64,000 nucleotides of DNA from IMG/VR virus record IMGVR_UViG_3300045988_173832, one strand, 5' to 3'. The translations under genes were made by a program, and so were the position numbers. Position 1 is the stretch's first letter. Each line of letters opens with the position of its first letter. Origin of the DNA: a virus. Below, piece after piece: positions 1-47,385 of the stretch. Below the pieces are notes generated by a model. That model worked only from the letters and a program-made list of their open reading frames with translations, made no database searches and was not told the origin of the DNA.

Positions 1-420
1 CAGGAACAGTGGAGGTCTGTGATCGAACAGATGTACAGGGAGTATGCAGATTGTACACCGAGATTTAGTAGACATCTTAACTTTGTTACAGGCGATAAGT
101 TTGATAATGCTGGTCATCTCGATTTTCATCATAGACGCATGATACTCGATATGTTTATTGTATTTGGGTATCATGAAAAACTATTTTCTTGGAACAATCC
201 TACACACTTTATGCTGCGTGTGTGTGATAACTGCGTAGTGTATCGTGATTGGATGGTTTAATAAACTAGGCGTGTGCAGCCGTTTAGTAGTATGTCATAA
301 TAATCTTTAGAAGGAGGCTGTCCCACCCTCCTTCCAACAGTAGGATCCTTCAGATCCTTCAACGCTCTATAGTAATGCACAGATATGACCAGCTACTGTC
401 TATTGTGAAAGGAGTACTTT

Positions 421-1275
421 ATGTACAATTACAGCAATTTGGTACACACTGTTGTAGCTAGTGGTGAAAGATATGCCGCTAGAGTACACAAACAGACTAT
501 GCCATTTATGGTTCTGAGGCGTTTGGCAGCGGAGGATAATATGAACTCCACATTTAAGAGTGCAAATATCTCTGCAGCTAGAGCTGTGGAGTACACTTTA
601 CGTGGTTTACGTGATACACTGACCGCTCGTAAGGAAGATAAGCCTAAGCTTATGCGCATTTGGGACAGTGGATTCTTGGCTTTGACAGAGATCCTGCGCA
701 TTTATGGTGTGAAGATTGTAGAAGGTAGTCATTTTGCGGCAACACTGTATAAGACGCTTAAGTCAATTGATTACGATGTCTTAACAGAGAGCTTCTGCAG
801 GGCGAATAACTCAAAGCACATGACAGTTAGGATGTTTAGTCATGCTCTTGCATACCCTGCAATGTATACATCTGCAAATATTTGTCAGCGTACAATAGCT
901 CGTATGCAGCGGCTGCATACCAGATATGGTATCAATATTGAGATGAGTGATTTTTCTGACGAGCAGCGTATTGATATTGTTGATCTGACAAAGACGATTA
1001 TTGACAGTGCAGAGGTATCTGGCTACTATTACACATTTAGATACTTTGCTGCTTTCGCTCCGAGATTTAAGCTCTCTGATGAGTTAGTAAAGAGCATCAC
1101 AAACTGCCTTGATCACGAGAATTATAATAAGAATGTGCTCTTACAGGTTTATTGGGAGCTCAGGAAGTTAAACGCACAGGGTGAGTTGCCTGAACAGCAG
1201 GGTATCATCTACTTATTTGACTTGTATGGTGGACCTTATTTCAATGCCGGGTACACTAATGTCTTCGGACGTTAA
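421..1275 (+). CDS. hypothetical protein (284 aa)
   Basis: Long ORF in track; ATG preceded by GAAAGGAG RBS; no recognisable motif. Confidence 0.5.
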   Translation: MYNYSNLVHTVVASGERYAARVHKQTMPFMVLRRLAAEDNMNSTFKSANISAARAVEYTLRGLRDTLTARKEDKPKLMRIWDSGFLALTEILRIYGVKIVEGSHFAATLYKTLKSIDYDVLTESFCRANNSKHMTVRMFSHALAYPAMYTSANICQRTIARMQRLHTRYGINIEMSDFSDEQRIDIVDLTKTIIDSAEVSGYYYTFRYFAAFAPRFKLSDELVKSITNCLDHENYNKNVLLQVYWELRKLNAQGELPEQQGIIYLFDLYGGPYFNAGYTNVFGR

Positions 1276-1319
1276 GTCAGTATAAAGTGTACATTTAGCA
1301 GGTTGTAGATCAGGATAAT

Positions 1320-1495
1320 AGAATGAATCTGACTGATTCATTAAGTAGTTACAGTAATGTGCCATGATGATAAGCAACCTGCACAGCGCATGCAGCTGTG
1401 ATATTGTAGGCTGATAGTATCTTTGGAGCTGCTGCATGCACTGTGCAGCTCCAACAGAATGAATCTGACTGATTCATTAAGTGGTTATAGTAATG
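1320..1495. repeat. two 40-bp direct repeats (1320-1359 and 1456-1495, 38/40 identical), each holding an inverted repeat aatgaatc-N5-gattcatt, flanking a long GC-rich inverted repeat (about 1378-1450)
   Basis: Read directly from sequence; arms ctgcacagcgcatgcagc / gctgctgcatgcactgtgcag are near-perfect reverse complements. Confidence 0.6.
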
Positions 1496-1725
1496 CATCA
1501 TTTCAGAAGGCAGTATCAAATTATTTTATATTTGTGTGATAACAGATACAGTTACTTAGGCTTCATGGCAGTAGTCATGAAGTTTTTATACGGACAGGGC
1601 TTTAGCAGCAGTTAAGGCTGAATGTAGGGAATGCCACAAGAGGTGGCACAACGCTTGATGGTGGGTTTGAGGCATAACGAGATGACAATTTGCGCATGAG
1701 CAGAAAGTCATAACCAAATAGTATC

Positions 1726-1754
1726 TTGACACTAGGATTTAAGTGTGTTATACT
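1726..1754 (+). promoter_or_regulatory. sigma-70/SigA-type promoter: TTGACA, 17-bp spacer, TGtTATACT (extended -10)
   Basis: Consensus -35 and extended -10 read from sequence, about 45 bp upstream of ORF 1798. Confidence 0.55.
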
Positions 1755-1797
1755 ATTAGCAAAATAATGTTTCTTAGCTGAGATTGGAGAATAAAGC

Positions 1798-2274
1798 ATG
1801 CTTCACATTTATTTCAATCCTAGGGACGATTATGACAGTGTCTTAACCGAGGATAACTATCGTATTCAGCCAACCTTTTGGTTTGATTATCAAGGAGGTG
1901 CTGATTATATTACTGGAGATGTTGAACGAGCAATTATTGCAGATATCGATAAAGGTGAAGTTATCAATAGAAACATGATTGATTTCCCAGTTTTTGGGTG
2001 TATGTCTCCAGATAAGCTATCGGGTACTTCCAAAACACTTATTCTTGCCAACAATGAACCAGGCATATACGTAAATGGGGACTTTGTTGGTAATAATGGT
2101 TATAGGTGGATTCTATCTTTAGCAGAAGACAAGGATATCTATCTACATGCTACGTGTCTGATGCATTTCCAATGCGATTTTAAAGCTCATATTATTAATG
2201 ATGATTCTTATATTTCCTCTTGGAAGGAGTTTTTAGATAAGGGGGTAGATTTCTTATATGAAAGGAATTCGTAA
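1798..2274 (+). CDS. hypothetical protein (158 aa)
   Basis: ORF track; downstream of consensus promoter. Confidence 0.5.
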   Translation: MLHIYFNPRDDYDSVLTEDNYRIQPTFWFDYQGGADYITGDVERAIIADIDKGEVINRNMIDFPVFGCMSPDKLSGTSKTLILANNEPGIYVNGDFVGNNGYRWILSLAEDKDIYLHATCLMHFQCDFKAHIINDDSYISSWKEFLDKGVDFLYERNS

Positions 2275-3232
2275 GTTTCAATTATCCTCAAAGAATATCT
2301 TGTTTGATATTGAGCTGCATAGAAATGTTACAGTAATTCGCGGTGACGGCGCAACATATAAGACAATGTTCTGTAATATGCTTAGAGCAGCCCATGTCAA
2401 GGGAAGCGGTGTTCATCTTCGCAGTTATCAAGCTGAAGTCCTCTGTTTAACAGATCAGGAGTTTAATGCAGATAATTTAGTACAGTACAAAAATAAAGAC
2501 GTCATTCTTGTATTTGACGAATCTTCTTCTTGTATACGTACAACAGCATTTAGAGAAGCAATTGAATCCACAGGTTGCTACTTTATTCTAATCACTAGAA
2601 ATAGATGTGACTGCTTTGGTATGAGCATGAAAGAGCTGTATGAGTTCACATATTCTGACTCAGTCGACTTAAGCAAGCGTGTGATTAGCATGAACCCACT
2701 TTACAAGAGTGATTGTTATGGAATATTAAGCAATCAGTCACAGGTGATTACTGAAGATTCTAATGCAGGCAAGCAGTTCTTTAACAGGGCATATGGGCAT
2801 GAACACGTTTACACCTCTCATGGCAAAAGTAATATTCCTGCAGCAATAAAAGAGTATTCAGATAGTATTGTAGTTGTGGATGGAGCAGCATTCGGTTTTG
2901 AAGTAGAAGATGTTCTCCCTCTGCTGTCAGCATACAATTGCTATTTAGTAGCAAAAGAGTCTTTTGAATATGTATTGTTGAAGTCTGGAATTTTGAAGAA
3001 TCTTGTGACCATTAATATCGATGAGCCGGAGGTTGATTCAAAGAAATATTTAACATGGGAACGTTTTTACACAGATTATATTCAAGAGATTACATCAGGA
3101 ACTGTTTTTGAATATAATAAAGTACATTTAAATGAAGCCTACTACATTTCGCAAGACAACAAACAGAAAATTTTGGATGTTTACAAATTACCATATGCTT
3201 TATTTTCAGAAACCACTTCATATTTTGAATAA
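2258..3232 (+). CDS. hypothetical protein (324 aa); possible degenerate P-loop NTPase (RGDGATYKT ... VILVFDE)
   Basis: ORF track; weak Walker A/B-like motifs only. Confidence 0.45.
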   Translation: MKGIRKFQLSSKNILFDIELHRNVTVIRGDGATYKTMFCNMLRAAHVKGSGVHLRSYQAEVLCLTDQEFNADNLVQYKNKDVILVFDESSSCIRTTAFREAIESTGCYFILITRNRCDCFGMSMKELYEFTYSDSVDLSKRVISMNPLYKSDCYGILSNQSQVITEDSNAGKQFFNRAYGHEHVYTSHGKSNIPAAIKEYSDSIVVVDGAAFGFEVEDVLPLLSAYNCYLVAKESFEYVLLKSGILKNLVTINIDEPEVDSKKYLTWERFYTDYIQEITSGTVFEYNKVHLNEAYYISQDNKQKILDVYKLPYALFSETTSYFE

Positions 3233-3287
3233 CACATGTTATGACTGTACGCTGTACAGTCATATTTCTTTAGTAGGAGGTAAATAT

Positions 3288-3470
3288 ATGTCTACTTATG
3301 AGATCATCAGCTTTAACGGCAAAGTTATTTCTACAGGCATATGTAAAGACATCAGGCACTATTATGATCCATTTACACATGTAGAAATGGTTGACTTTAC
3401 AGATTCAGTAACGAATACAGTTATCACGATTTGTAAAGATTTTGTTACTATCACACCTTTAGCAGCTTAA
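3288..3470 (+). CDS. small hypothetical protein (60 aa), internal start of ORF 3132..3470
   Basis: ATG 3288 preceded by CTTTAGTAGGAGG (RBS AGGAGG, 7-nt spacer); ends ...TPLAA. Confidence 0.4.
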   Translation: MSTYEIISFNGKVISTGICKDIRHYYDPFTHVEMVDFTDSVTNTVITICKDFVTITPLAA

Positions 3471-3487
3471 GGAGACGAATAAATATT

Positions 3488-4222
3488 ATGCGTATATGTA
3501 AAAAGGGAATTAATGACCTTAAAACTTGGTGCTCACAGCATGGAAATTTTGGTCAACAGCTAATGACCGAATGGACAGAAGATATTCCAATGGATAGCAT
3601 AGCCAGAGGAAGTGGTAAAAAAGTCAAATGGAGATGTTCAAAAGGACACGAGTGGTATGTAAGCATAAATGAAAGAACAGGGAAAAAGCGAAGTTGTCCT
3701 TATTGCTTTAGAGAAAACGCAAGTACATTGATGACAAAAGCAAGCCTTTCAGAAGAAAACAGTCTTAAAACCTGGTGTATGCAGAATGGCGCATTTGGTC
3801 AGCAGCTCATTAGTGAATGGACAGGCAAATTATATGACGGAACCAAAACAAATTTAGATGAAGTAACAAGAGCAAGTGGCAAGAGAGTTAAGTGGAGATG
3901 TGACAAAGGGCATGAATGGTATGCTACAATATATAGTAGAACGAGACAAAAGTGTGGTTGTCCTTATTGTTCTGGACGGATGGCTTCAGAAGAAAACAGT
4001 TTAAAAACTTGGTGTATGCAAAATGGTGATTTTGGTAAGCAGCTTATGAGTGAATGGACAGGTGAGCTTGAAGATGGAGCTAAAACAAGTTTAGATGAGG
4101 TAGCAAAGGCAAGTCGTAAGAGGGTCAGGTGGAGATGTGACAAAGGGCATGAATGGTATACAGCAATCTGGCAAAGAACAAGCCAGAAGACAGAGTGCCC
4201 TTATTGTTACAGAAAAAATTGA
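3488..4222 (+). CDS. protein with three tandem zinc-ribbon repeats of about 70 aa (W-C..GHEW...CPYC; resembles DUF4379/PF14311 'probable zinc-ribbon')
   Basis: Three near-identical repeats visible in translation (KRVKWRCDKGHEWY...CPYC). Confidence 0.6.
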   Translation: MRICKKGINDLKTWCSQHGNFGQQLMTEWTEDIPMDSIARGSGKKVKWRCSKGHEWYVSINERTGKKRSCPYCFRENASTLMTKASLSEENSLKTWCMQNGAFGQQLISEWTGKLYDGTKTNLDEVTRASGKRVKWRCDKGHEWYATIYSRTRQKCGCPYCSGRMASEENSLKTWCMQNGDFGKQLMSEWTGELEDGAKTSLDEVAKASRKRVRWRCDKGHEWYTAIWQRTSQKTECPYCYRKN

Positions 4223-4283
4223 AGCAAATAGGGAATCAGCACTCCTCACGTCAACTGATTACTTTTAATTATAAGGAGATTTT

Positions 4284-5201
4284 ATGCTTTACGTATATGA
4301 GTACCTAGATTCTATAGTTCTGGTAAGAGAGATATGCAAGCATTGCACAGATTACATCGCATGTCCACCACGATTTTTTAATGATATGATTAGTCATATA
4401 GATTTTACTGATGAAACTATTCATGATATAATTTCACAAGTGGATTCTTCACTTATAAATCGTATTTATGCTGCAATTGATCATCAAGCGCTAGAAGATG
4501 TGTGCGCAATACTGTCAGATAGCTGTAAAACTGCAATTATAGCGCACCTCTATCAGGATTATTGTATATCGTTGGATTACGCATCATCTTTCTTAGTAGA
4601 AGAACTGATTCATAGTTGGGCTAAGCTTCGGGATGTAAGTATAGCAACAAGCAGACCACTTACGAATGTATATTGCAGTGCTCCAACATATTTTGTCCCA
4701 AGAGGAACATGCTATTCAATTGAGCAGATCAATAGATATATTGACGCTGATTTGAAAGCAGAGCACAAGTCTTTACAGTGTCAGTTGTCTACAGATGGTT
4801 TTTATTTAGATTTTGATCTTGCTGGACCTATACAGATAGTGCATGATAAATATAGTTGTGCATCTAGACTTTATGAATTGGCACGAACACATACTAATGA
4901 TATAATGGAAGGCACTGACCTATTATTGGGGGCTTATACACCAGGACAGTTTACAATGTTTCCACGAACTGCTAAGCATGTTTGGGTGGTTGACCCCTAT
5001 GAAGAACTTATTGATAGCTCGGTAGTAGCACAGGAAATAATATCAGCTTCAATGAAGGGGCATTATTTTATCATACCAACATTGAAACCCATGCGCAGTT
5101 ATTTTCAGGATGCTATTTATACAGATAGAGACCTAACTTTTGCAGAGCATACTTTTAAGATACAGAAGCCCACGCCTACTACATCAACTAATTACTTTTG
5201 A
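4284..5201 (+). CDS. hypothetical protein, paralog of ORF 8615..9502 ('MLY..E / YIACPP / LSDSCKT / TLKPM..YF' family)
   Basis: Shared N-terminal and C-terminal motifs with 8615..9502 visible in translations. Confidence 0.6.
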   Translation: MLYVYEYLDSIVLVREICKHCTDYIACPPRFFNDMISHIDFTDETIHDIISQVDSSLINRIYAAIDHQALEDVCAILSDSCKTAIIAHLYQDYCISLDYASSFLVEELIHSWAKLRDVSIATSRPLTNVYCSAPTYFVPRGTCYSIEQINRYIDADLKAEHKSLQCQLSTDGFYLDFDLAGPIQIVHDKYSCASRLYELARTHTNDIMEGTDLLLGAYTPGQFTMFPRTAKHVWVVDPYEELIDSSVVAQEIISASMKGHYFIIPTLKPMRSYFQDAIYTDRDLTFAEHTFKIQKPTPTTSTNYF

Positions 5202-5317
5202 TTATAAGGATATTTCATGTCAAAACATCTTTTAGCAGCTGAAAAAAAGTCTGAAGAAATATGCTGTTACAACTAAACCTGCAGATGCTATGGCTAATCT
5301 GCACTTTGTGCTGATTC

Positions 5318-5554
5318 ATGGATATGGGAGTCGCTGTAAGTAACATGAACAAACACATTCGAAATGTTTATAAATCCATATTCAACGAAAATTTCAACCC
5401 CGCTTTACCAGACAATCGTTTGAAAATGCAAAGTATGGTATATCTTCTTCAGGAGAGTGGAACATCATTAGGCGATTATGGTTTTCTATGGTACAAATGC
5501 GGCTTATATTGTCAGGCATTAACTGACGATATGCTTGAAGAAAACACAAAATAA
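5318..5554 (+). CDS. hypothetical small protein (78 aa) in atypical-codon segment
   Basis: ORF track; C-ending codons enriched compared with flanks. Confidence 0.35.
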   Translation: MDMGVAVSNMNKHIRNVYKSIFNENFNPALPDNRLKMQSMVYLLQESGTSLGDYGFLWYKCGLYCQALTDDMLEENTK

Positions 5555-5597
5555 AACAATAAATGTACGAAAAGGAAACAAATTCTGAGAGAACAAC

Positions 5598-6026
5598 ATG
5601 GCATTAAACGAAATATTACAGAACATAACAATCCTCACAAACAACAGCGCAAGCCCCACCGGTTTTGCATGGGAATGCATCGTCTTATGCGGAATAGCAT
5701 GCTGTATTATGATTGCATGGCTTATATGCGAGATCATAAATTATGGACATACTTCAGTCAAGATTTTTGCAGGCTTTATGGCAACGCTTTTTGCTGCTTG
5801 TATAATAGGCGGCATTTTATTGATTTGCAACGAAGACATGCATCTTGCTGGCACAGTAGTAAACCTATACGTCAGATTCAACGACGTCACAATCGAAGAT
5901 ATGTCACAGTATTTCAAAATAAGTAATATGACAGCGGCAAATGAAGGAATATACGCTGATATAACGCCTATTGCTGAATATAGCATGGAAATTAAGCATG
6001 CATTGAACAGCATGGGTGTAATCTAA
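5598..6026 (+). CDS. small membrane protein (142 aa, 2-3 TM helices)
   Basis: Hydrophobic segments; RBS-like GGAAACAAATTCTGAGAGAACAACATG weak. Confidence 0.4.
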   Translation: MALNEILQNITILTNNSASPTGFAWECIVLCGIACCIMIAWLICEIINYGHTSVKIFAGFMATLFAACIIGGILLICNEDMHLAGTVVNLYVRFNDVTIEDMSQYFKISNMTAANEGIYADITPIAEYSMEIKHALNSMGVI

Positions 6027-6395
6027 AGATACACAAATCTCTGATAGACACAGTCTATGGTCTGTCTTCCACGGAACTTAATGCAATCTCAACCAGAAAT
6101 AACAATCAGTTTTACAAGCATAGACAAAGTAAAACACATCATAAGCGAAGACATTATAGAAACTTCTATAAATATGCTGGTGTGTCATCACACCACGACA
6201 AACAGGATTACGAAGATTGTAATAAATATATCGTTTATTTTCGGCGACAAAATCGCAAACCTGATAACAATTTCGGCTATCAGGATGAGCATTTTGTTGA
6301 AACAGAAAACAACTGGAAAGAAACATGAGTCAGAAAATAATATCTGTGGCACAAGCCACGCCACATCAACATTTCTGAAGAAAGGAAAGAACAAA

Positions 6396-7253
6396 ATGCT
6401 TAACATTGCCAAATCTGCAAAAATCATTCAGAAAGAACTTGATAAGCAAACGCTTGAAAACGCAACGTCTGGCTGGATGGAAGAAAACATCACGCAGACT
6501 ATATACAGTGGCGGCTGTGAAATCAAAATGCCAAAAACAGATGTCAACGATTTCGATGCCTGTATTACATACATTTATGAAACGCTCAAACTTGCAAGAG
6601 AAAGAAATAAGCGTTTTTGCATCGACAAGCATGACATTGACAAGGAAAACATTGCACAAACTATAACCGCTGTCATATCCGAATTTCAGCGCACGCAGGT
6701 AAATCCTGAAATCGATGCATACCGCTATTCCAGACTGGCTGCTGCAGCCGGCATTCGGGAAAACTATATCCCAAATAAAGCAACCATCACAGCCAGACTA
6801 TTGAACCAGCTCAGCAAGGTTCGTAGTGAGATAAGTGATAAGGACGATATTGTTATTGTCATGAGCCGTCATGCTTACGACAAGCTTATATATTCAGATA
6901 AAGTTTCGCAAAATATCGAAACATCTCAGTTCAGACAGGGCGAACTCGATTTGTATGTAAAGTCCATTGATAATGTTTATATCATTCCTGTGCCGTCTAC
7001 AAGAATGAAAACCGCATACACATTCAATGATAACGAGGGATTTGCTGCAATCGAAAATGCCAAAGAAATCAACTGGATCATCTGTCCCAGAACAACCCCT
7101 ATTGCAATATCCAAGACGGACAATATTGTAATCACAACACCCGAAACAAATCAGTTTGACCCTGATTTATGGGACGTTGATTACAGCAAATATTATGACC
7201 TGTTCATACCCGACAACAAGAAAGCTACTATTGCTGTTTCCATTAGAGAATAA
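6396..7253 (+). CDS. hypothetical protein (285 aa); ORF 6057..7253 in track with a likely real start at ATG 6396
   Basis: First in-frame ATG with AAAGGA upstream; region 6057-6395 A/C-rich and probably non-coding. Confidence 0.45.
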   Translation: MLNIAKSAKIIQKELDKQTLENATSGWMEENITQTIYSGGCEIKMPKTDVNDFDACITYIYETLKLARERNKRFCIDKHDIDKENIAQTITAVISEFQRTQVNPEIDAYRYSRLAAAAGIRENYIPNKATITARLLNQLSKVRSEISDKDDIVIVMSRHAYDKLIYSDKVSQNIETSQFRQGELDLYVKSIDNVYIIPVPSTRMKTAYTFNDNEGFAAIENAKEINWIICPRTTPIAISKTDNIVITTPETNQFDPDLWDVDYSKYYDLFIPDNKKATIAVSIRE

Positions 7254-14154: not shown

Positions 14155-14536
14155 GGGGGCGTAAAGGTCTCGACGGGGATCTGAACCTCTGATAAGCGTG
14201 TACGGATTGAGCAGATCCGTTCAAAAAGCTCATCGTTGAATAACATTCAACAACTCTGAAGCTGTAGCAGCTTGATGTTACTAGGCGTTCACTAGAGCGC
14301 TGAAAAAGGTATGGAAAGATGAACTGGTGACCTCTGCGTTCCATTGCTTCAAAAGAATTGCCACTAGCTCACAATATCGCTTGTTGTATTGTGATAAAGC
14401 TGCCATGACAAGTAAGTGACCTGTATGGAGGCAGAATCCACCAAGCAGGAACTGACAACAGTGAAACTATCTACACACGTAGAAAATCAGAGTGGAAGAT
14501 TTCTGGACACGGGTTCGATTCCCGTCGCCTCCACCA
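14155..14536 (+). ncRNA. ssrA: tmRNA (ssrA-like) copy 1; tag reading frame GCT CAT CGT TGA... interrupted by in-frame TGA after 3 codons
   Basis: 5' GGGGGCG...TTCGACGGGG and 3' GGACACGGGTTCGATTCCCGTCGCCTCCACCA; acceptor pairing gives G3:U (Ala identity); T-loop TTCGATT. Confidence 0.8.
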
Positions 14537-16109: not shown

Positions 16110-16497
16110 GGGGGCATAAAGGTTTCGACAGGGACTTGAAGCTCAGATAAGCACGTATAGGCTGGTGGGTGAACCTGTATAAAAGCCAACTATTATCGAA
16201 TAACATTCGATGCTACTGAAGCTGTAGCTGCTTAATCGCTACTAGGCAGTCACTAGACTGCTGAAAAGTGTGCAGTGATTTGAACTGGCGACCTCTGTGC
16301 TGTGCATCTAAAAGAAATGCCGCTAGGTTCAGTACCTCGCTTGTTGGGTGCTGTATAACCTTTAATGACAAGTAAGCTACTCATATGGAGGGTGATGACC
16401 ACCAAGTGAGAGCCGACAATAGTAAAAACACCTAAGCGTGTAGAAAGTCAGTGTAGACAGTTTCTGGACACGGGTTCAATTCCCGTCGCCTCCACCA
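16110..16497 (+). ncRNA. ssrA: tmRNA (ssrA-like) copy 2; predicted tag ANYYRITFDATEAVAA (GCC resume at 16185, TAA at 16233)
   Basis: 5' GGGGGCATAAAGGTTTCGACAGGG, 3' GGACACGGGTTCAATTCCCGTCGCCTCCACCA; intact tag ORF ending ..AVAA-stop. Confidence 0.8.
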
Positions 16498-18970: not shown

Positions 18971-19765
18971 GTGGTTATGTCATATAGCTATGATGAAAAA
19001 CTAAAGATGTTTAATGAGAATCTAGGGCTTGTTTACACTGTTGTATACAAACACTGGGGGTTAAAATATGTGCCTGAGGATGATCTGCTCCAAGAAGGTT
19101 TTATGAATTTATGGCTGATTATTGATTTATACAACCCTGATAGCGGTACAAAATTTGCAACATATGCTTACGTAGCATTAACAGATAGACTGACTAAATT
19201 TACTTTAAAGTATCAGTATGGTAGCTCTATGCGCAGTTCTTCTTTTCAAGAAGCTATGTCTGCATTGCGTTATGCTAAGTTAAATAACATATCTGTTGAT
19301 TTAGCATGTGATGCATTAGGATTTAAAGGTGCTAAACGAGAATATGCATTGCTCATGGCAAAAGGCAGTCTTCTAGTGGAAAGTCTATCATCACCTGTAG
19401 TATCTTCAGACCAGGATTGTGAAACAACACTAGAGGATATTGTTCCTGATGCATACTCTTTAGCAGATGAGGTATGTGAAAAAGTATCGTCAGAAAATTT
19501 AAAGAAGATACTCTATACTGATTTCGTGCAATACTGTATCAAAAAACATACAGGGAAGCCGCCTGACTATTTTGAAGATTTAGTAAAAATGTATCTTGAT
19601 ACGATTTTTAATGATGAGCATATCTCTCAGAATGCTATAAGTAAGAAAATTGGTGTATCTAATACAGTTGTTAGTAAACACTTTAAATGTTTCAAGCAAA
19701 ATCTCAAGCAATTCATTATACAAAAACATTTGATCTCGAGGAGCGTTTCACAATGTTCACACTAA
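18971..19765 (+). CDS. sigma-70 family sigma factor (regions 2 and 4)
   Basis: DLLQEGFMNLWLIIDLYNPDSGTKFATYAY matches region 2.1-2.3; C-terminal ISKKIGVSNTVVSKH HTH (region 4). Confidence 0.7.
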   Translation: MVMSYSYDEKLKMFNENLGLVYTVVYKHWGLKYVPEDDLLQEGFMNLWLIIDLYNPDSGTKFATYAYVALTDRLTKFTLKYQYGSSMRSSSFQEAMSALRYAKLNNISVDLACDALGFKGAKREYALLMAKGSLLVESLSSPVVSSDQDCETTLEDIVPDAYSLADEVCEKVSSENLKKILYTDFVQYCIKKHTGKPPDYFEDLVKMYLDTIFNDEHISQNAISKKIGVSNTVVSKHFKCFKQNLKQFIIQKHLISRSVSQCSH

Positions 19766-20979: not shown

Positions 20980-21291
20980 ATGCTTGCATTGGTTATTTTA
21001 GCAGGAATATTTTTAATCAATGTAGTAATATATCCACCGCAGCCAAGCGAACTTATAAAAGGCACTGCAGATTTTACTATTGTTGATAAGTTTACTTTAT
21101 CCGATAATTCAAAAAGTAACAACTATGTACGCTTACATTGCAAAGACTTGAATATTCAGATTATGATATGTGATAGTCAGATATATAGACATAGTAATTT
21201 GGGTACAAGCGTATCATTGCCTTATACATATCAGTATAGTAAGTATACATTTCCTACAACAAATTGTATCTTAGTGGAGGATTTGCCATGA
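20980..21291 (+). CDS. hypothetical protein with N-terminal TM (103 aa)
   Basis: ORF track. Confidence 0.4.
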   Translation: MLALVILAGIFLINVVIYPPQPSELIKGTADFTIVDKFTLSDNSKSNNYVRLHCKDLNIQIMICDSQIYRHSNLGTSVSLPYTYQYSKYTFPTTNCILVEDLP

Positions 21292-22539
21292 ATATCAAAA
21301 GATCACTTATAATATCTTTAGCAGTTGCAATGTTAGCAGTTACCCCCCCCCCATACATTAATACAACATGCCAGCGCAAGTACTGTTGTCTCTGCAACCA
21401 AAATCTCACACAGCTATCCTTATCACTGCAATGAAGGTAGTTATGACGCATCACAGAGTCCTTATGATGGTACTTGGTATGTAAGGGATAAAAAATTATG
21501 TAAGCATGGATCTTTAGCGCCACATCTTTACGATGACAAAGGATATTGCAATTATATTTTGCATGATATAACTGCTGTTGATACAAAACTTGTTATGGAT
21601 TATGAGGGCACTTATCATGGATATCCTGAACCATGTCTTTATGAATTCAATGTTGAAGATATTGCAGCAGATTTAGTGGCATCTGGAATACCTATGACAG
21701 TCTCTATATCTGGACCGATGTATGAGAATAAGTATTTTATTGCAGGGTATAAATATAAACTTAAGACATCGTGTCCTTATCACGTACCGCTACTATTATC
21801 CTCTAAGGCAGGTGTATTTATAGATGCATATTCAGATGAGGTTGAGGTAATTCCAGAGCAATTAATAGGCCACTCTCTAAGCGTAGGCACATTATCTGGG
21901 CAGATATCTATTGCAAAACGTGATACTAAGACAGTAACTCATGATGCCTTAGCTTGTAGCGAAGGATTTCGGAAGATAATTGGTACGCATAAAGATGTAC
22001 ATAGTTCACCAGGAGAAAATCACACAATTTATGATGATAAAGGTAATGCAATTGGTGGATATGGAACAACAAATCATTACTGTGCATATTGTAGAACCTC
22101 ATGGCAAACTGGGGGCAATGCTGTAACTCCAGGATATACAGGAGATGTTTATGACAAAAATGGAAATAAGGTAGGCAGCATATCTGAATCTGATTGGGGC
22201 TCAGATAATACAGGATTAAAATTGATTTTACTTAATGGACTGCCATGGTCAACACAGCCTGTGACGGAAAGTAATGCATGTATAACTGCGAAGTATGATG
22301 TTTGCAGTGAGCATGCTAATTATGTAGGTCCACATTATTTTTGTCCAGATCACGGCTATGTGGGAACATCTGGATACTGTACATATGCACTGGATGGTAA
22401 GCCATTATATGCAGACACAAAATGCTATGGATTTTCAGGAAATGGGTTTGACAGTATTTCAGTGTATAGTGTGACAATTAAAGGAGTCAACGGTGCTACA
22501 GGATATGTGGATTATGTTTCTTCTGTGCAGGTGTCTTAA
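21288..22539 (+). CDS. secreted Cys-rich protein, phase-variable: signal-peptide exon (ATG 21288) is out of frame with ORF 21559..22539 because of a C10 tract at 21343-21352; 9 or 12 C would restore one 417-aa ORF
   Basis: Manual translation: deleting one C fuses MNIKRSLIISLAVAMLAVTPP... in frame to ...LHDITAVDTKL...; paralog of 24526..26013. Confidence 0.6.
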
Positions 22540-22550
22540 ATCATTTACAT

Positions 22551-22760
22551 ATGTCAAAGAAAACGAAATATCATATTACTACTGACCAAGGCACTGAAAT
22601 ATCCTCTGGCGTAGGGACATCTGTTCCATTTACTATGCAGGATGAAAATATCATTATAAAGTTGGAACCAGATAAGCTAACTCAAACAGTCACAATACAG
22701 GGTTCATTGCATAAAACGTATAATACAAAAACATTTAATCTAAGCGCAACTGTTTCATGA
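22551..22760 (+). CDS. small protein corresponding to the conserved C-terminal cassette of the secreted family (...KTFNLSATVS)
   Basis: Similarity to C-termini of 23503, 24526 and the 26035 fragment. Confidence 0.4.
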   Translation: MSKKTKYHITTDQGTEISSGVGTSVPFTMQDENIIIKLEPDKLTQTVTIQGSLHKTYNTKTFNLSATVS

Positions 22761-22775
22761 CAAGGAGAAATAATC

Positions 22776-23489
22776 ATGAATATTAAACGAGCAATAAGTA
22801 CAGCTTTAGCAGTTATCTTAGTAGTTACTCCCCCCCACCCCCTGAGAGAGGTTAGCGCAGCTTCTTTTTGCCAGGAATATCATCTGCTGAAGGATACCTA
22901 CAATGCGTGGGCTTCTCGTGATGATGTTGTGAAATTGCTTGGAGTTAACCCAGACAGTCACACCTTCAATAACATACATAGCGGTAGTCATGAAGAATCG
23001 ACAGGAGCTCCATCCGGAACTCCACAGTATGTTTATCTGTCTTTTATAAGAATCTACATTGACCCTAGACTGACGGGTACTTTTGAACTTCATACATTTC
23101 ATTTCGCGCATGATGACACAATGACATATAATGAATCTTCTAGTGGACTATATCAAGTATATAAGGGTTCAACTGATAGCTATCCTACATTAGGCACTAT
23201 AGATATAAGATACGTGCCATCACAGGAAGATTTAAGCCGCGGAGTCTCATTTGTGAAAACAGATTCAAAAACTAGAGCTGTTCCTTCAGATTTTGCAAAA
23301 GTAGATCCACTGGCATCTAGCTTTAATATATCTGTTGGAACTGATGACACTTGCGCCTTCACATTATCAGATATGCTATCCTATGCACAGTATGGTGTCT
23401 TTAAACAGCCACAGGAAATATCTATTTGTAAGAACCAGTTGGCAGTGTATAATCAAGCAGCATTTAATATTATGGTCAGTATTACATAG
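22776..23489 (+). CDS. secreted protein, MNIK-family paralog (signal peptide + C7AC5 tract, in frame)
   Basis: MNIKRAISTALAVILVVTPPHP signal peptide; family resemblance. Confidence 0.6.
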   Translation: MNIKRAISTALAVILVVTPPHPLREVSAASFCQEYHLLKDTYNAWASRDDVVKLLGVNPDSHTFNNIHSGSHEESTGAPSGTPQYVYLSFIRIYIDPRLTGTFELHTFHFAHDDTMTYNESSSGLYQVYKGSTDSYPTLGTIDIRYVPSQEDLSRGVSFVKTDSKTRAVPSDFAKVDPLASSFNISVGTDDTCAFTLSDMLSYAQYGVFKQPQEISICKNQLAVYNQAAFNIMVSIT

Positions 23490-23502
23490 GAGGATATAAT
23501 AA

Positions 23503-24219
23503 ATGAACGTTAAGAAACAAATTACTATATTATTAGCAGTTTCTATGCTTGCACTTACCACACCCCCGCTTATGCAAGGAGGCTGCCTAACTGCTAAAGC
23601 AGTAACATCTACATCTTCAGCTGAAGAGATTGCTAAAGACTTATTTGAGTATAAAGATGGTGTATTTAAGGCAATCAGTGCAAGAGTATCATATAGTTAT
23701 GATCCTAATAATCCTAATCATGAAACAGGACATGGTCATGGATCTAGTGTTGTTATTGATCCTCGAATAACAGGAAAAGTTGAAGTTTATGCACAACGAG
23801 TCAGTAGTAACTCTGAAGAGGAAATTATGGGTAATAGAAGCAGTTGTTCTTGGTCATTTTCAGTCAATGAAAGAGGTGAATACTCTGGATATAGTAAAAT
23901 AAGAATAGAATATACACCGTCGAAAGAAGACATTGCAAATGGCGCTGTTGTATTAAGAACGCCTCAGCCATTAACATATGCAGGATCTAATGATTTAGTC
24001 TATTTTAATGGTTCAAGGCAATATATCTCAATGATAACGACTCCTGAATCTACATATAAGTATAGCACAGAATACTTAGGATATGGTATAACCTTTAAAG
24101 ATGTAGTTAAATATGCATTTCCAACTGCATTTCAAGAGCCACAAACAATTATAGTAACAACACCTTGTACAACGATATATAATAAGCCACAGTTTAATCT
24201 AGGAGCATCAGTTTCATAA
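23503..24219 (+). CDS. secreted protein, MNIK-family paralog (C-terminus ...QFNLGASVS)
   Basis: MNVKKQITILLAVSMLALTTPP signal peptide; C5 tract. Confidence 0.6.
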   Translation: MNVKKQITILLAVSMLALTTPPLMQGGCLTAKAVTSTSSAEEIAKDLFEYKDGVFKAISARVSYSYDPNNPNHETGHGHGSSVVIDPRITGKVEVYAQRVSSNSEEEIMGNRSSCSWSFSVNERGEYSGYSKIRIEYTPSKEDIANGAVVLRTPQPLTYAGSNDLVYFNGSRQYISMITTPESTYKYSTEYLGYGITFKDVVKYAFPTAFQEPQTIIVTTPCTTIYNKPQFNLGASVS

Positions 24220-24231
24220 AAATGAGGCATT

Positions 24232-24500
24232 ATGCATATCAAGAAAACTTTGGTAGTCGCAGTATTTGCACTACTGTTATTTACTCCCCGCTAACTAGTC
24301 TCAAAGAACTTATTAGCCACTAAATTATCTGAAGAAGGATATGGTACTGAGCAAATGCAAATACCAGGTGGTACAATTTGCTTTTTGCTTGCAGATGTGA
24401 TTTCATATGGGAAATATGGTGTTTTTAAGCAATCACAAGATATCACAGTAGATAGTACTAAATCAGTAACATATAACCAATTATCGTTCAATCTATGAGT
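24232..24500 (+). pseudogene. degenerate mini-paralog: signal peptide MHIKKTLVVAVFALLLFTPR, in-frame TAA, then C-terminal-cassette-like sequence (...YGKYGVFKQSQD..LSFNL)
   Basis: Manual translation across stop at about 24292; resembles C-terminus of 22776. Confidence 0.4.
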
Positions 24501-24525
24501 TACAATTTCCTAGAAAGGAGTAACT

Positions 24526-26013
24526 ATGAATATAAAGAAAATAGCAATGAGCTTAGCAGCAAGTTTACTAATGCTAGTTTTATCTCCTCCCCAACTGGTC
24601 AATCTAGCAAGCGCAGAAACTGTAGTTGTTGATTCATGTTTTACTCAAGTAGGAGCAATAAATTATTCAGCATACTGTTCAGATTGCAACTATGCAATAC
24701 AACAAATAACAACTCCTGACAATAAGCATTATTGGAGGATGGCGGACAGTGCTAAAATGTGCAGCCATGGCTCTTATAACCCACACTATTATAATCCAAG
24801 TACAGGTGAGTGTTCTGGAAGAGTAACAGGAGTTGATTATTCAACTGCAGTACCAATCAGAGAAGGACAACCATCTCTCAGCGCAGTACCGTATTATACA
24901 TTCGATCCTATTTTAGCAGCTGCACCTCTTAGAAAGTATGCACAGAATGTAAGTGTATCTTATACAGGAAATCTATACCAAGGTAGTTATTATATTTACG
25001 GTAAGTCTTACACTCTATCTATAAAATCATCAAGTCATATTCCAATTACAGTTGAGAATTCATCTTTACTCTATGATGCATATAATATGAACACCAGTGT
25101 ACCTGTAAGTTCAAGTCTGTATACTATTGGGACATTATCAGGAGATGTTACTTTGTATTTAGGCCTTGGCAGACTTCAGCATAGAACAACTCTATGTCCA
25201 AATAGTCAGCCAGTCTTAACGGGATCACATAAAAATGCTCATGAGGTAAGTTCTTGGTCAGAGAACTATAACGACGGTAATGGTAATATCATAGGTGGTG
25301 CTGGCGGAGCTAAGTTTGAGTGTTCAGCTTGTGGTGCGGCATGGACAGTGTCTGGAGGTGGGCTTACTACTCCTGGATACTCAGGTTCAATCTACAATAG
25401 TGATGGAGATCTAGTAGGAGGAATATCATCATCTAGTGGTACAACGAGCTCTTGGGGTGTGGGTCTTATGCTCGAACGCGGTGATTTTAATTATTCAGCT
25501 GGATCAAGTCTGGTTAGAAAAAATCCATGCTATACAGCAACTTATCCTGTATGTACCAAACATGATAACGCAGTAGGTGCACATTTTTATTGTGAAAGAC
25601 ATAATTATTATGGGTTGTCAACCCTTTGCCCATTCGATGATAGAGGTAATCTCTTATATAAAGATGCCAGAGTGTATCAGTTTTATGATCAAAAAGATGA
25701 AACAAGGGTATACTCTTGTAATTTGTCATGTGCACGTGGAACATTAGTGTATGCCAATTATGCATCTACAGTTCCGGGTGGGCATATTACACTAACTAAC
25801 GCAACAAACAGTGACGCAAAATATACAGTCATTGCTAATTCCAAGACTGTTGCATCAGGTGTTCTAACATCAAGTGCTACTTTTGATATGCCTAGTGCAG
25901 ATGTCGTAGTCTATGTCGAGCCGGTTAAGCTTGCACAAAATGTTTCAGTATTAACGAGTTATACAATGCACTATAATAATCAAACATTCGATCTGCAAGC
26001 AGTTGTCTTTTAG
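24526..26013 (+). CDS. large secreted Cys-rich protein, paralog of 21559..22539
   Basis: Signal peptide; shared CxxCG..W..GG..TPGY and C..H.N.VG.H..C..H.Y motifs with 21559 ORF. Confidence 0.6.
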   Translation: MNIKKIAMSLAASLLMLVLSPPQLVNLASAETVVVDSCFTQVGAINYSAYCSDCNYAIQQITTPDNKHYWRMADSAKMCSHGSYNPHYYNPSTGECSGRVTGVDYSTAVPIREGQPSLSAVPYYTFDPILAAAPLRKYAQNVSVSYTGNLYQGSYYIYGKSYTLSIKSSSHIPITVENSSLLYDAYNMNTSVPVSSSLYTIGTLSGDVTLYLGLGRLQHRTTLCPNSQPVLTGSHKNAHEVSSWSENYNDGNGNIIGGAGGAKFECSACGAAWTVSGGGLTTPGYSGSIYNSDGDLVGGISSSSGTTSSWGVGLMLERGDFNYSAGSSLVRKNPCYTATYPVCTKHDNAVGAHFYCERHNYYGLSTLCPFDDRGNLLYKDARVYQFYDQKDETRVYSCNLSCARGTLVYANYASTVPGGHITLTNATNSDAKYTVIANSKTVASGVLTSSATFDMPSADVVVYVEPVKLAQNVSVLTSYTMHYNNQTFDLQAVVF

Positions 26014-26034
26014 AGAGGATACTTGTAAAAGTAA

Positions 26035-26232
26035 AGAAACATTATTAGAAGTGGTAACGCTACATCTATAACTGATACATTGAAAGTAAATGAGGCTGTG
26101 ACATATACAACTTACGGATTAACCAGTATTTCATTGGAAGCTTCAAAACTAACACAGGCATTATCAATTCAGAACAGATTTAGCAAGCAGTACAACAGTA
26201 CTAAATTTAACTTAGGAGTAGCAGTTACATAA
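26035..26232 (+). pseudogene. orphan copy of the family C-terminal cassette (no start codon), same frame as 24526 ORF after TAG/TAA/TAA stops; ends ...KFNLGVAVT
   Basis: Manual translation of open frame 26035-26229. Confidence 0.35.
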
Positions 26233-26760
26233 ATGAAACTCTTTAACTCAATCATGTTAGGCCTAGCAATCGGACTATTAATCTTTAGTGGCGTGTTGCT
26301 AGGCTTATCTTCACAAATAAACAATCTTATACAGGCAGATTATGTTGAATTTGCAAAAGAACAGGTTGCCATAAATAAGCAGAATAGCACATTGATTGTA
26401 TCATCGTCTCATCCGGAAGGTATTATTCTCGACGATCCAACTAGTGAATTTCATCAGACACTTTTAATACCTGAGCATCCCGGCAAGTATACGGTCTCGC
26501 TCGTTGATATCTATTTGCCAAGTGTTGCTGTTTTTATTCCAAATGTATGGAATTGCTTTAACTATCAACCATCAACGATAAAAGTCGCTACACTGCAAGA
26601 TGCTGACGTGTCATCTTTAGTAGACGCGGAAATAAATTATGTTACAGCACAATGCAATGTGACATATCAAAATATGGCATTATTGCTTGTTACACAAATT
26701 GCAATATCTGCTTTACTTATATGTTTAGCTTTAGCAGGATTAAAAGACAGAGAGGATTAA
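26233..26760 (+). CDS. bitopic membrane protein (175 aa)
   Basis: N- and C-terminal hydrophobic helices. Confidence 0.45.
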   Translation: MKLFNSIMLGLAIGLLIFSGVLLGLSSQINNLIQADYVEFAKEQVAINKQNSTLIVSSSHPEGIILDDPTSEFHQTLLIPEHPGKYTVSLVDIYLPSVAVFIPNVWNCFNYQPSTIKVATLQDADVSSLVDAEINYVTAQCNVTYQNMALLLVTQIAISALLICLALAGLKDRED

Positions 26761-46509: not shown

Positions 46510-47385
46510 ATGAATATTAAACAGCAGCTTATAACTCCACTTGTGACATTGCTTAAGACATTTTCTGGCACCGAAGAAATTCAGGTAAATGTGCCAGATT
46601 ACAGTAACGTCTTTGGATTTTACTCGCCAACAGGAGGTACGGGTGTAACTACATTCGTAGCAAATCTAGGTTATGTCCTTGCATCTCAGCTTAAGGTTGC
46701 TATTGTTGATTTTGACTTATATCATCCGGCACTATTTAGATTCTTACTTGACGATAGCGATGATAAAACAGGATTACACCCAGAAGCTGATTTAGTAGAT
46801 AAACTTATTACGTCAGGAGCTAATATTACTTCCTTTGGTCATACATCAAAGTATAACAATATAACATTGTTCACTGGTATGCCACAGGATGATATCATTA
46901 AGTTCTGTGAGCTGGATTACAACAACATTGTGCAGTGCATTAAGGAACTCTCACGCCTCTACGATATTGTTTTAGTAGACTTTAAGGGCAATCTTGCACA
47001 AGAAACCGTAATGGCTTCAATTGATGCTTGCACACGAGTATTCACATTTATTAGGCCATTGTTTAGTGATGTCGATAGCATGCACAAGGATAATGATCTG
47101 TTAATTCGTTATGGTTATGGAAAGAAACTTACAGCAATTGTACAGGCTAATATTCAGAAGCGATATCTGCCTGATAGTGCTTTTGATGATGAGGACATTT
47201 CAACTGTAATGCGTTTGCCATATGTAAAATCAGTAGAAGACACTGGCGAGAGTTTTGATATTTTCTATGCGACAAATGCAGGTTCATCAAAAGCTGGTGC
47301 AGCTTATGCAGAGTGTTGTAAGTTTATGGCAGAGTATTTATGCAACTACGAAAGAATGATTTTTGAGATGGGAGATGAGAAGTAA
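46510..47385 (+). CDS. TadZ/CpaE-like ParA/MinD-family ATPase (deviant Walker A TGGTGVTT)
   Basis: FYSPTGGTGVTTFVANLGYVLA + hydrophobic beta-strand then D (Walker B-like VAIVDFD). Confidence 0.55.
   Translation: MNIKQQLITPLVTLLKTFSGTEEIQVNVPDYSNVFGFYSPTGGTGVTTFVANLGYVLASQLKVAIVDFDLYHPALFRFLLDDSDDKTGLHPEADLVDKLITSGANITSFGHTSKYNNITLFTGMPQDDIIKFCELDYNNIVQCIKELSRLYDIVLVDFKGNLAQETVMASIDACTRVFTFIRPLFSDVDSMHKDNDLLIRYGYGKKLTAIVQANIQKRYLPDSAFDDEDISTVMRLPYVKSVEDTGESFDIFYATNAGSSKAGAAYAECCKFMAEYLCNYERMIFEMGDEK

Follow-up and report, generated by a model that had tools for sequence, protein, structure and literature searches.

Why would a phage maintain, side by side, several genes for related exported proteins whose reading frames are broken close to the start by long runs of cytosine, while the remainder of each gene stays open? 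This question is raised by positions 21288-26232 of a 64,000-nucleotide stretch of the viral record IMGVR_UViG_3300045988_173832 in IMG/VR (the whole stretch is hereafter called the window), where a tandem family of genes for predicted secreted proteins is encoded, every unit on the plus strand. A first-pass annotation, made from the letters of the window alone, described these genes as paralogs with detachable C-terminal cassettes and likened the layout either to cassette shuffling of a surface or receptor-binding protein or to rapid birth and death under diversifying selection. We favour a different answer, to which we assign a probability of roughly 0.78, namely, that slipped-strand contingency loci control this orphan, predicted Sec-secreted protein family in a gut phage through changes in the length of poly-C tracts. 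The positions and exclusivity of the tracts, their length polymorphism, its effect on the reading frame, the constraint on the gene bodies and the mutational origin of the apparent cassettes can be read directly from the sequences compared.

The units lie where the first-pass annotation had placed them and comprise five signal-peptide-like starts, at 21288, 22776, 23503, 24232 and 24526, and six copies of a C-terminal module. The leaders follow the pattern MN[IV]K[KR], ~13 hydrophobic residues, (T/S)PP and then AxA (for example, by parts, MNIKR, SLIISLAVAMLAV and TPPHTLIQHASA/S; here and below, the slash marks the predicted cleavage site). As judged by inspection, all members fit the layout of a Sec signal peptide cleaved by signal peptidase I, and a Shine-Dalgarno sequence, weak at 24232, precedes all five starts. 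The module consists of 65-75 amino acids (aa) and ends in YN...FNLxAxV(S/T); a regular expression for this motif, run over all six frames of the 64-kb window, found exactly six copies, all of them in the locus and on the plus strand. The features of the locus are, in order:

21288..21342, plus strand: start of G1, with a GGAGG Shine-Dalgarno sequence upstream, the ATG and the n- and h-regions of the signal peptide (MNIKRSLIISLAVAMLAV)
21343..21352, plus strand: C10 poly-C tract of G1, out of frame in the window; C9 or C12 would give VTPPHTLIQHASA/STVV
21353..22539, plus strand: mature body of G1, in the +1 frame relative to its own ATG, with a Cys/His/Gly-rich core homologous to G6
22522..22528, plus strand: window-specific 1-nt deletion in G1 (TCTGTGCAGG versus TCTGTTGCAGG), which splits off the C-terminal module of G1
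22551..22760, plus strand: G2, a 69-aa open reading frame (ORF) that is the C-terminal module of G1, without a Shine-Dalgarno sequence
22776..23489, plus strand: G3, a small paralog of 237 aa, in frame (from the ORF and blastp)
22830..22842, plus strand: interrupted tract of G3, C7AC5; the gene is in frame (ON) in the window
23503..24219, plus strand: G4, a small paralog of 238 aa, with a short or interrupted tract (C5 at 23563-23567)
24232..24513, plus strand: G5, a dead stump with a leader, an in-frame TAA at 24292-24294, a G3-like module and an in-frame TGA at 24496-24498
24526..26013, plus strand: G6, a large paralog of 495 aa, intact in the window, with a short C-rich stretch, CTCCTCCCC, ending at 24592
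26041..26232, plus strand: G7, the 3' remnant of a deleted large paralog, 'e', retaining the C-terminal module only

These members form two sub-families with a common leader and module, one of large proteins rich in Cys, His and Gly (G1 together with G2, and G6) and one of small proteins (G3, G4 and the G5 stump). In blastp comparisons, G1 with its frame repaired matched G6 with an E value of 3e-37 (30% identity over 427 aa), in agreement with the Cys/Gly-rich core noticed in the first pass; the large members conserve a CxxC, a cluster of Cys and His residues (C..H....G.H..C..H.Y.G) and two YD..GN.(I/V)G motifs. Among the small members, G3 matched G4 (2.5e-9), and the G5 stump matched the C-terminus of G3 (4e-11, 46% identity). 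The module joins the two sub-families because G2 matches the C-terminus of G6 (3e-8), G7 (2e-4, 47% over 34 aa) and G5 (4e-3). With E values down to 3e-37, the similarities are not low-complexity noise, and the motif scan and blastp together bear out a family of tandem paralogs with Sec-type signal peptides and a common C-terminal module.

The poly-C tract, which the first-pass annotation listed merely as a shared trait, is indeed present in G1 (C10) and G3 (C7AC5), and here emerges as the key functional element of the locus. The tracts of these two genes are the only runs of at least seven C or G in the window, at 37% G+C, and 0.6 such heptamers are expected from shuffled sequences. They start 55 nt (G1) and 54 nt (G3) after the ATG and encode the Pro-Pro part of the signal peptide. 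G1 is a single gene, 21288-22539, that loses its frame at the C10 run and regains it with C9, then reading ...AVTPPHTLIQHASA/STVV..., in parallel with ...VVTPPHPLREVSA/AS... in G3. In L001, a 218-kb contig that is ~90% identical to the window at the locus and was compared separately, the 21.5 kb examined contain four runs of C9-C10, one in each of four paralogs and always at this leader position. In the consensus, every one of these runs puts its gene out of frame; corrections of -1, +1, +1 (or -2) and -1 turn the paralogs into complete ORFs of 395, 490, 236 and 514 aa.

We compared ~35 related loci, from independent samples and assembly pipelines (Logan, ENA, JGI), and aligned 19 sequences, the window and 18 relatives, over 12.7 kb for insertions and deletions (indels). 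The alignment contains 16 indel blocks in total; the G1 tract has 8 variants and the G3 tract 13, and most of the other blocks have two. Between identical flanks, the G1 tract occurs as C7, C8, C9, C10 and C13. In relatives, G3 carries uninterrupted runs of C10-C17, some preceded by CCA or CCACCA, as well as short interrupted tracts, of which C7AC5 and C4AC5 are in frame and C8AC5 is out of frame. A further paralog, 'a', part of a 1.5-kb block found in about half of the loci, has tracts of 8, 10, 13 and 14 as well as CCCAC9. Wherever G4 could be read, it was in frame.

The states of these genes differ between near-identical strains, sometimes reciprocally: G1 is out of frame (OFF) and G3 ON in L018 and L020, G1 is ON (C9, 490 aa) and G3 OFF in L019, and both are ON in L035. 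Proline number is the sole difference between the in-frame alleles of paralog 'a' (HPP versus HPPP), and those of G1 read TPP (C9, L019) or TPPPP (C13, L035), so that the cleaved c-region of the leader tolerates a variable repeat. Taken together, G1, G3 and 'a' combine three hallmarks of contingency loci: a repeat over-represented inside the frame, repeat number that varies between conserved flanks, and a length that toggles an otherwise intact ORF in and out of frame. The contig counts cover listed members (15 per protein cluster) and hence are partial: G1 is ON in at least 13 contigs, with at least ~38 OFF-type calls; 'a' is ON in at least 14 and OFF in at least ~68; and the long-tract allele of G3 is ON in at least ~10 and OFF in at least ~86. 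The interrupted alleles of G3 are mostly ON, the window allele in at least 49 contigs and C4AC5 in at least ~181 versus at least ~31.

These observations suggest the following scheme. The locus is a tandem, lineage-specific expansion of an orphan family of predicted Sec-secreted proteins, and most paralogs encode the Pro-Pro codons of the c-region as a long poly-C run, the length of which would be altered by polymerase slippage. A gain or loss of 1 or 2 nt is expected to end translation 20-48 codons past the ATG, such that the signal peptide and the mature protein would not be correctly made (OFF); a gain or loss of 3 nt would merely change the number of prolines in the cleaved leader by one (ON). 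Given these consequences of tract length, each paralog would be an independent and reversible ON/OFF switch. Switching would be frequent within the phage population and would occur at the DNA level, instead of or besides the RNA level. The proteins would be exported to the envelope or the medium of the infected cell, and their expression would be usually costly and occasionally useful; as for their role, surface remodelling, exclusion or adhesion is our guess.

Several considerations weigh against this scheme. All the evidence of switching consists of differences between assemblies, and the compared loci share ancestry, so that the counts do not represent independent events. Long C or G runs raise the error of Illumina reads and of assemblers, and the coverage of contigs is low in places (~3.7x for L040 and ~1.7x for L043). 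Among the fetched loci, 'a' is ON in 0 of 10 and G1 in ~3 of 21, below the one-third expected from random length, and such an excess of OFF states in the large paralogs could reflect decay or expression through slippage at the RNA level. The C9 allele recurs in five samples of one strain group (L008, L010 and L012-L014), so the consensus tract is not always unstable. Finally, the signal peptides were assessed by eye, and AlphaFold2 gave no usable model, with confidence scores (pLDDT) of 33 for G4 (14-sequence alignment) and 34 for G6 (3 sequences).

The most immediate doubt is that tract lengths and frameshifts are homopolymer errors of short reads. Some contigs do break at tracts: L003, L021, L022 and L024 start in a tract or within ~15 nt of one, and a scaffold gap with a garbled flank abuts the tract in L002. 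Such breaks are expected from heterogeneous reads, and poor read quality would cause them too. The very low coverage of some contigs and a 1-nt deletion at 22525 that is unique to the window among the 19 aligned sequences point in the same direction. Nevertheless, we regard assembly error as an extremely improbable explanation of the tract variation as a whole: C10 recurs across pipelines (in the window, L002, L018, L020, L037 and L041), as does C9 in the five L008-group samples; the range of 7-17 far exceeds errors of one nucleotide; the remainder of the 12.7 kb is nearly free of indels in 19 assemblies; and in-frame variants that differ in proline count are found on multiple contigs. The independent recurrence of lengths, their range and the near absence of other indels contradict this explanation.

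Another alternative is ordinary decay, whereby dispensable duplicates are being lost and the poly-C runs are mutational weak points without a selected role. The state of the gene bodies bears directly on this alternative. From the predicted cleavage site to the stop codon, mature bodies are open in 33 of 33 loci for G3, 22 of 26 for G1 and 9 of 10 for 'a', even though ~80% of the long-tract alleles are OFF. Between the window and L001, the ratio of nonsynonymous to synonymous substitution rates (dN/dS) is 0.37 for G1, which is OFF in both, 0.51 for G3, 0.32 for G4 and 0.20 for G6; the flanking genes yield 0.07-0.22. The family is thus constrained, yet less so than the neighbouring genes.

Decay has clearly touched the locus: G5 and G7 are stumps, G1 of the window carries a second frameshift, G6 has many nonsense and frameshift alleles, paralog 'a' was lost through two or more deletions, and L028, L030 and L032 have one truncated G1 body in common. 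As the sole process, however, decay seems to us highly unlikely. Long C runs are absent elsewhere in this AT-rich genome, but they persist at identical codon positions in at least four paralogs, as well as in phages that are ~10-20% diverged. Past OFF tracts, nearly all strains have bodies that remain open for 213-483 codons, with dN/dS of 0.3-0.5, and ON alleles remain on many contigs. Decay would also interrupt or shorten the runs, as it did in G5. Thus, the preservation of the bodies and the retention of the runs contradict pure decay.

The fate of G6, which has a short interrupted C stretch instead of a long tract, provides the contrast. Its body is intact in 16 of 25 loci, and the relatives contain at least six independent inactivating changes against a background of 1-30 other substitutions per 1488 nt. 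These include nonsense mutations at codons 43, 137, 273 and 298, bodies truncated at 294 aa after the cleavage site in L027 and L042 and at 214 aa in L023, a -1 frameshift at the short C run of the gene itself, the out-of-frame variant tracts C5AC3 and C8AC3, and a 750-nt deletion. In L008 (6853-7761) and L038 (6847-7755), the 750-nt deletion brings the G5 stump and the second half of G6 together in a leaderless hybrid ORF of 302 aa; the gene layout of L008 is repeated in five contigs of other samples (L009, L010, L011, L015 and L038). Among the listed members, G6 is intact in at least ~102 contigs, is called as a leaderless 424-aa protein in at least 94 and is truncated in at least 31. We infer that the OFF state is often favoured, and that the long-tract paralogs reach it reversibly whereas G6 is lost irreversibly. 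Tract-bearing paralogs that are off at the tract but otherwise intact, next to a paralog without a long tract that is destroyed by nonsense mutations and deletions, illustrate in a natural setting why selection favours a reversible switch.

Intact and constrained bodies behind mostly out-of-frame tracts could, in principle, also be explained by slippage in expression, with out-of-frame as the normal state and a constitutive low dose of protein produced by RNA polymerase slippage or by +1/-1 ribosomal slippage on CCC-CCC-C. RNA polymerases tend to slip on runs of at least nine identical bases, and +1 shifts are known to occur readily at CCC-C. This explanation appears unlikely to us, however, because the correction required is not fixed: with the same flanks, nine G1 alleles are offset by +1, four by +2/-1 and one is in frame, and the four tracts of L001 likewise call for different shifts. 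No conserved stimulatory structure came to notice either, although no search was aimed at one. Furthermore, in-frame alleles are known for every paralog, and tract length in the DNA itself ranges from 7 to 17. Given this variation, slippage at the DNA level certainly occurs; given that the needed shift differs in sign and that in-frame alleles exist, slippage in expression is not the designed route. Programmed ribosomal frameshifting proceeds in one fixed direction, and the offsets found here are +1, -1 or +2 among strains and paralogs. The two kinds of slippage are not mutually exclusive, and slippage of RNA polymerase or the ribosome may add leaky expression to switching in the DNA.

What, then, are the detachable cassettes? 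All the units that suggested them exist, and each turns out to be a relic of mutation, invariant among strains or confined to the window, so that the idea of cassette shuffling falls. The units at 21288 and 22551 are not separate but are both parts of G1, split by the loss of one T at ~22525: the window reads TCTGTGCAGG where all 18 aligned relatives and L001 read TCTGTTGCAGG, and in relatives, the G1 body and the module form one fused ORF of 490 aa. Hence, the free-standing module ORF at 22551..22760 (G2) is a relic of a deletion seen in the window alone, which may be a true mutation or an assembly error, and it also lacks a ribosome-binding site. The start-less module copy behind the 24526 ORF is real but starts at 26041 rather than 26035. 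This copy, G7, aligns with the last 192 nt of the 514-aa paralog 'e', present in full at 11520-13065 of L001, and all 29 other loci of the window's clade that cover the site share this 192-nt homology; G7 is what one old deletion of ~1.3 kb left behind. The mini-gene at 24232, with its TAA and module, is present as described and is identical in all loci, with the leader, including the TAA, matching letter for letter in every locus read; it is a fixed dead stump and not a cassette.

Other mechanisms that the layout brings to mind were considered and set aside. Silent-cassette recombination does not fit because G2 is a frameshift product unique to the window and G7 and the G5 leader are invariant among loci. 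Recoding of the stop codons in G5 (TAA and TGA) is not indicated, given that family members end in TAA, TAG and TGA and that G5 has no body. A diversity-generating retroelement (DGR) target was rejected as no pair of template and variable repeats was found in the window, and there is no direct repeat of at least 40 nt between 21-26 kb and the reverse transcriptase region at 36 kb. Nothing in the window thus ties the reverse transcriptase itself (ORF 36335-37567; RVT_1, E 8.5e-32) to a DGR; the distant relative L039 encodes it too, at its syntenic end.

Turnover of the family, the other element of the first-pass annotation, is apparent in the gain and loss of 'a', the stump of 'e', the knock-outs of G6 and junctions in leader DNA. 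Where 'a' is absent, the leader of G1 takes three forms, namely, a pure G1 leader, a hybrid with an 'a'-like first half and a G1-like second half, as found in the window, and a complete 'a' leader on the G1 body, as in the L008 group and L035; therefore, 'a' was deleted at least twice by recombination inside repeated leader DNA. G4 alleles look mosaic in the alignment, as judged by eye. At the syntenic position, L039 carries a single gene of the family, without the PP leader and without a C or G run of at least 7, which indicates that the expansion and the tracts are specific to the lineage of the window. By contrast, the proposed diversifying selection is not borne out: dN/dS nowhere exceeds 1, with overall values of 0.2-0.57 and no 60-codon window above 0.8. 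Between the two G4 allele classes, the N-terminal two-thirds give a ratio of 0.73-0.77 and the module, the most conserved part, one of 0.14.

The first reading recognised no domain in the family, and this stands: searches of all members against Pfam, PHROGs and NCBIfam gave nothing above noise, and a profile search of PDB gave nothing up to E 5. The family is an orphan, given that an exhaustive HMMER search among 1.84 billion proteins found only 12 family representatives; a word-indexed homologue search with the paralog profile gained almost nothing, a scan of IMG/VR proteins found no member, and GTDB genomes contain no relative of G4. A pattern for leader plus poly-C in IMG/VR DNA had four matches, all in unrelated contigs. 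One unrelated contig met by chance (L006, IMGVR_UViG_3300045988_117551) contains runs of C7, C9 and C10 within 1.4 kb at 4990-6355 and, judging by these runs, could represent a further phage locus whose tracts are hypermutable. Because gene callers split or truncate the genes of the secreted-protein family (calls of 186, 400, 424-425 and 493 aa), protein databases contain this family in fragments. For G1 with a C8 tract, they report a protein of 493-494 aa, MENYEHQK..., without a signal peptide (L027 3779-5260, L029 3780-5261, L036 2433-3914). Production of such a protein from an upstream start in the C8 state was rejected, given that the window does not preserve this start in the alternative frame, and these calls are probably gene-caller artefacts that inflate counts of 'full-length' proteins in databases.

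As for anchoring, inspection by eye revealed neither a lipobox nor an LPXTG motif in the family members. The ideas that the C-terminal module is a type IX secretion C-terminal domain, a dockerin or an LPXTG sorting signal were rejected because the module is Pfam-negative and showed none of the motifs on visual inspection. Big_2 (PF02368) had no hit in the proteins of the window. A distant member, P0019, has a sub-threshold Big_2 hit (17.2 bits, with a cut-off of 22.8) located downstream of the module; this weak Big_2-like repeat is followed by a C-terminal hydrophobic tail, an arrangement that hints at display on the cell surface. A scan for promoters and terminators gave no excess over shuffled sequences.

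The window is phage DNA: all ORFs of at least 150 aa lie on the plus strand, G+C content is ~37%, and ORF 6057-7253 encodes a major head protein (PHROG 422, E 5e-63). Just upstream of the secreted-protein locus, ORF 18971-19765 encodes a sigma-70-like factor, and the immediate neighbours of the locus, 20980-21291 and 26233-26760, encode small membrane proteins. Because the related contigs, of 170-380 kb, come from human stool metagenomes, the source is a large, widespread, uncultured phage of the human gut; in megablast and tblastn searches, neither the locus nor G6 had a relative among the phages of INPHARED. In GTDB, the closest capsid relatives are nearly all from metagenome-assembled genomes of Clostridia (Oscillospiraceae, Ruminococcaceae, Acutalibacteraceae), at no more than 52% identity, and those in INPHARED belong to phages of Streptococcus, Clostridioides and Listeria; the host is therefore probably a Gram-positive bacterium of the Clostridia (Oscillospirales).

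The gene complement of this phage includes several further features of note. Two transfer-messenger RNA (tmRNA) genes, at 14155-14536 and 16110-16497, lie ~2 kb apart and are ~75-80% alike over repeat segments (Rfam RF00023 scores of 110.7 and 108.4 bits; ARAGORN tag of the second, ANYYRITFDATEAVAA); two diverged tmRNAs in one phage are unusual. After a gene for a MinD/ParA-like ATPase (46510-47385) come one for a T2SSE-family secretion ATPase (47385-48917; Pfam E 6e-26) and, up to 50847, two Pfam-negative ORFs of ~320 aa, a gene order that we take to resemble the core of a Tad/Flp pilus locus (CpaE, CpaF, TadB/C); were this correct, components of a pilus or secretion apparatus would be encoded by the phage. 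A flotillin/SPFH protein (Band_7 and Flot) encoded at 31248-32771 is conserved in L001 and L039 and has tblastn matches in three human-faecal phage records. An ORF within 3488-4222 comprises three tandem repeats of ~237-246 nt (~80 aa) with 65-79% identity. In L039, positions 1-4318 encode two methyl-accepting chemotaxis proteins (dCache_1/HAMP/MCPsignal) adjoining the sigma factor of that contig, which suggests a motile host and interference of the phage with chemotaxis.

If the genes switch as proposed, the phage might possess a 'surface repertoire', in which four to six exported-protein genes, each switching on its own, would give 2^n combinations in infected cells or lysates. This extension is tentative, and we consider it possible but doubtful. 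Such a repertoire might evade abortive-infection sensors of the host, competing phages or immunoglobulin A while keeping the occasional benefit of exclusion or adhesion, and would be a phage counterpart of bacterial antigenic and phase variation.

Among mucosal bacteria, ON/OFF switching driven by repeats is a classic strategy. In Neisseria opa genes (CTCTT) and in outer-membrane protein genes of Helicobacter pylori (CT or homopolymer), the phase-variable repeat lies in the code of the leader peptide. As in those families, the repeat in the signal-peptide code of the locus described here leaves the mature protein untouched, and the members would switch independently and produce combinatorial repertoires; unlike those chromosomal adhesins of mucosal pathogens, the genes are phage-borne and belong to an orphan family. 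The locus also recalls pilE/pilS, vlsE and DGRs in its tandem related segments, promoterless copies and the reverse transcriptase gene at 36335-37567, but differs in that the start-less copies are relics that do not vary among strains and in that the window holds no template/variable repeat pair.

Recognition of such switching in phages is recent, with Campylobacter phages in 2021 and, in the part of the literature consulted here, T-even phages in a 2025 preprint. Campylobacter Fletchervirus has hypermutable polyG tracts in receptor-binding protein genes (Sorensen et al. 2021, Cell Rep 35:109214, as cited in bioRxiv 10.1101/2025.10.21.683753). As far as that citation describes them, the two systems have in common G/C homopolymers of 7-11 nt or more within coding genes of phages, length changes that switch the frame, and diversity in the population. 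They differ, on the same account, in that the Fletchervirus tracts lie in virion receptor-binding genes of a Campylobacter myovirus, whereas those of the present locus lie in the signal-peptide code of an exported family that does not look like virion proteins, reach C17 and belong to a gut phage with a probable Gram-positive host. In T2 and T4, reversible frameshifts occur at A-runs and were interpreted as bet-hedging (Gomez, Barrick and Waters 2025, bioRxiv 10.1101/2025.10.21.683753). Mononucleotide repeats underlie the reversible frameshifts in both cases, and loss of function in T2 and T4 is advantageous under some host conditions; there, however, the A-runs are short (~6-9 nt), many gene classes are affected and mutation rates were measured by experiment, whereas here the C-runs are long, a single family is involved and the evidence is comparative.

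Thus, repeat-mediated switching in phage genes and leader-code repeats in bacterial adhesin families are both known already; new are the combination of the two, the gut-phage niche, the exported orphan family and the volume of natural ON/OFF data, with hundreds of public contigs already showing both states in natural populations. Compared with the known phage systems, the locus would extend switching to an abundant uncultured phage of the human gut, to exported rather than virion or anti-defence proteins, and to a whole tandem family with combinatorial states.

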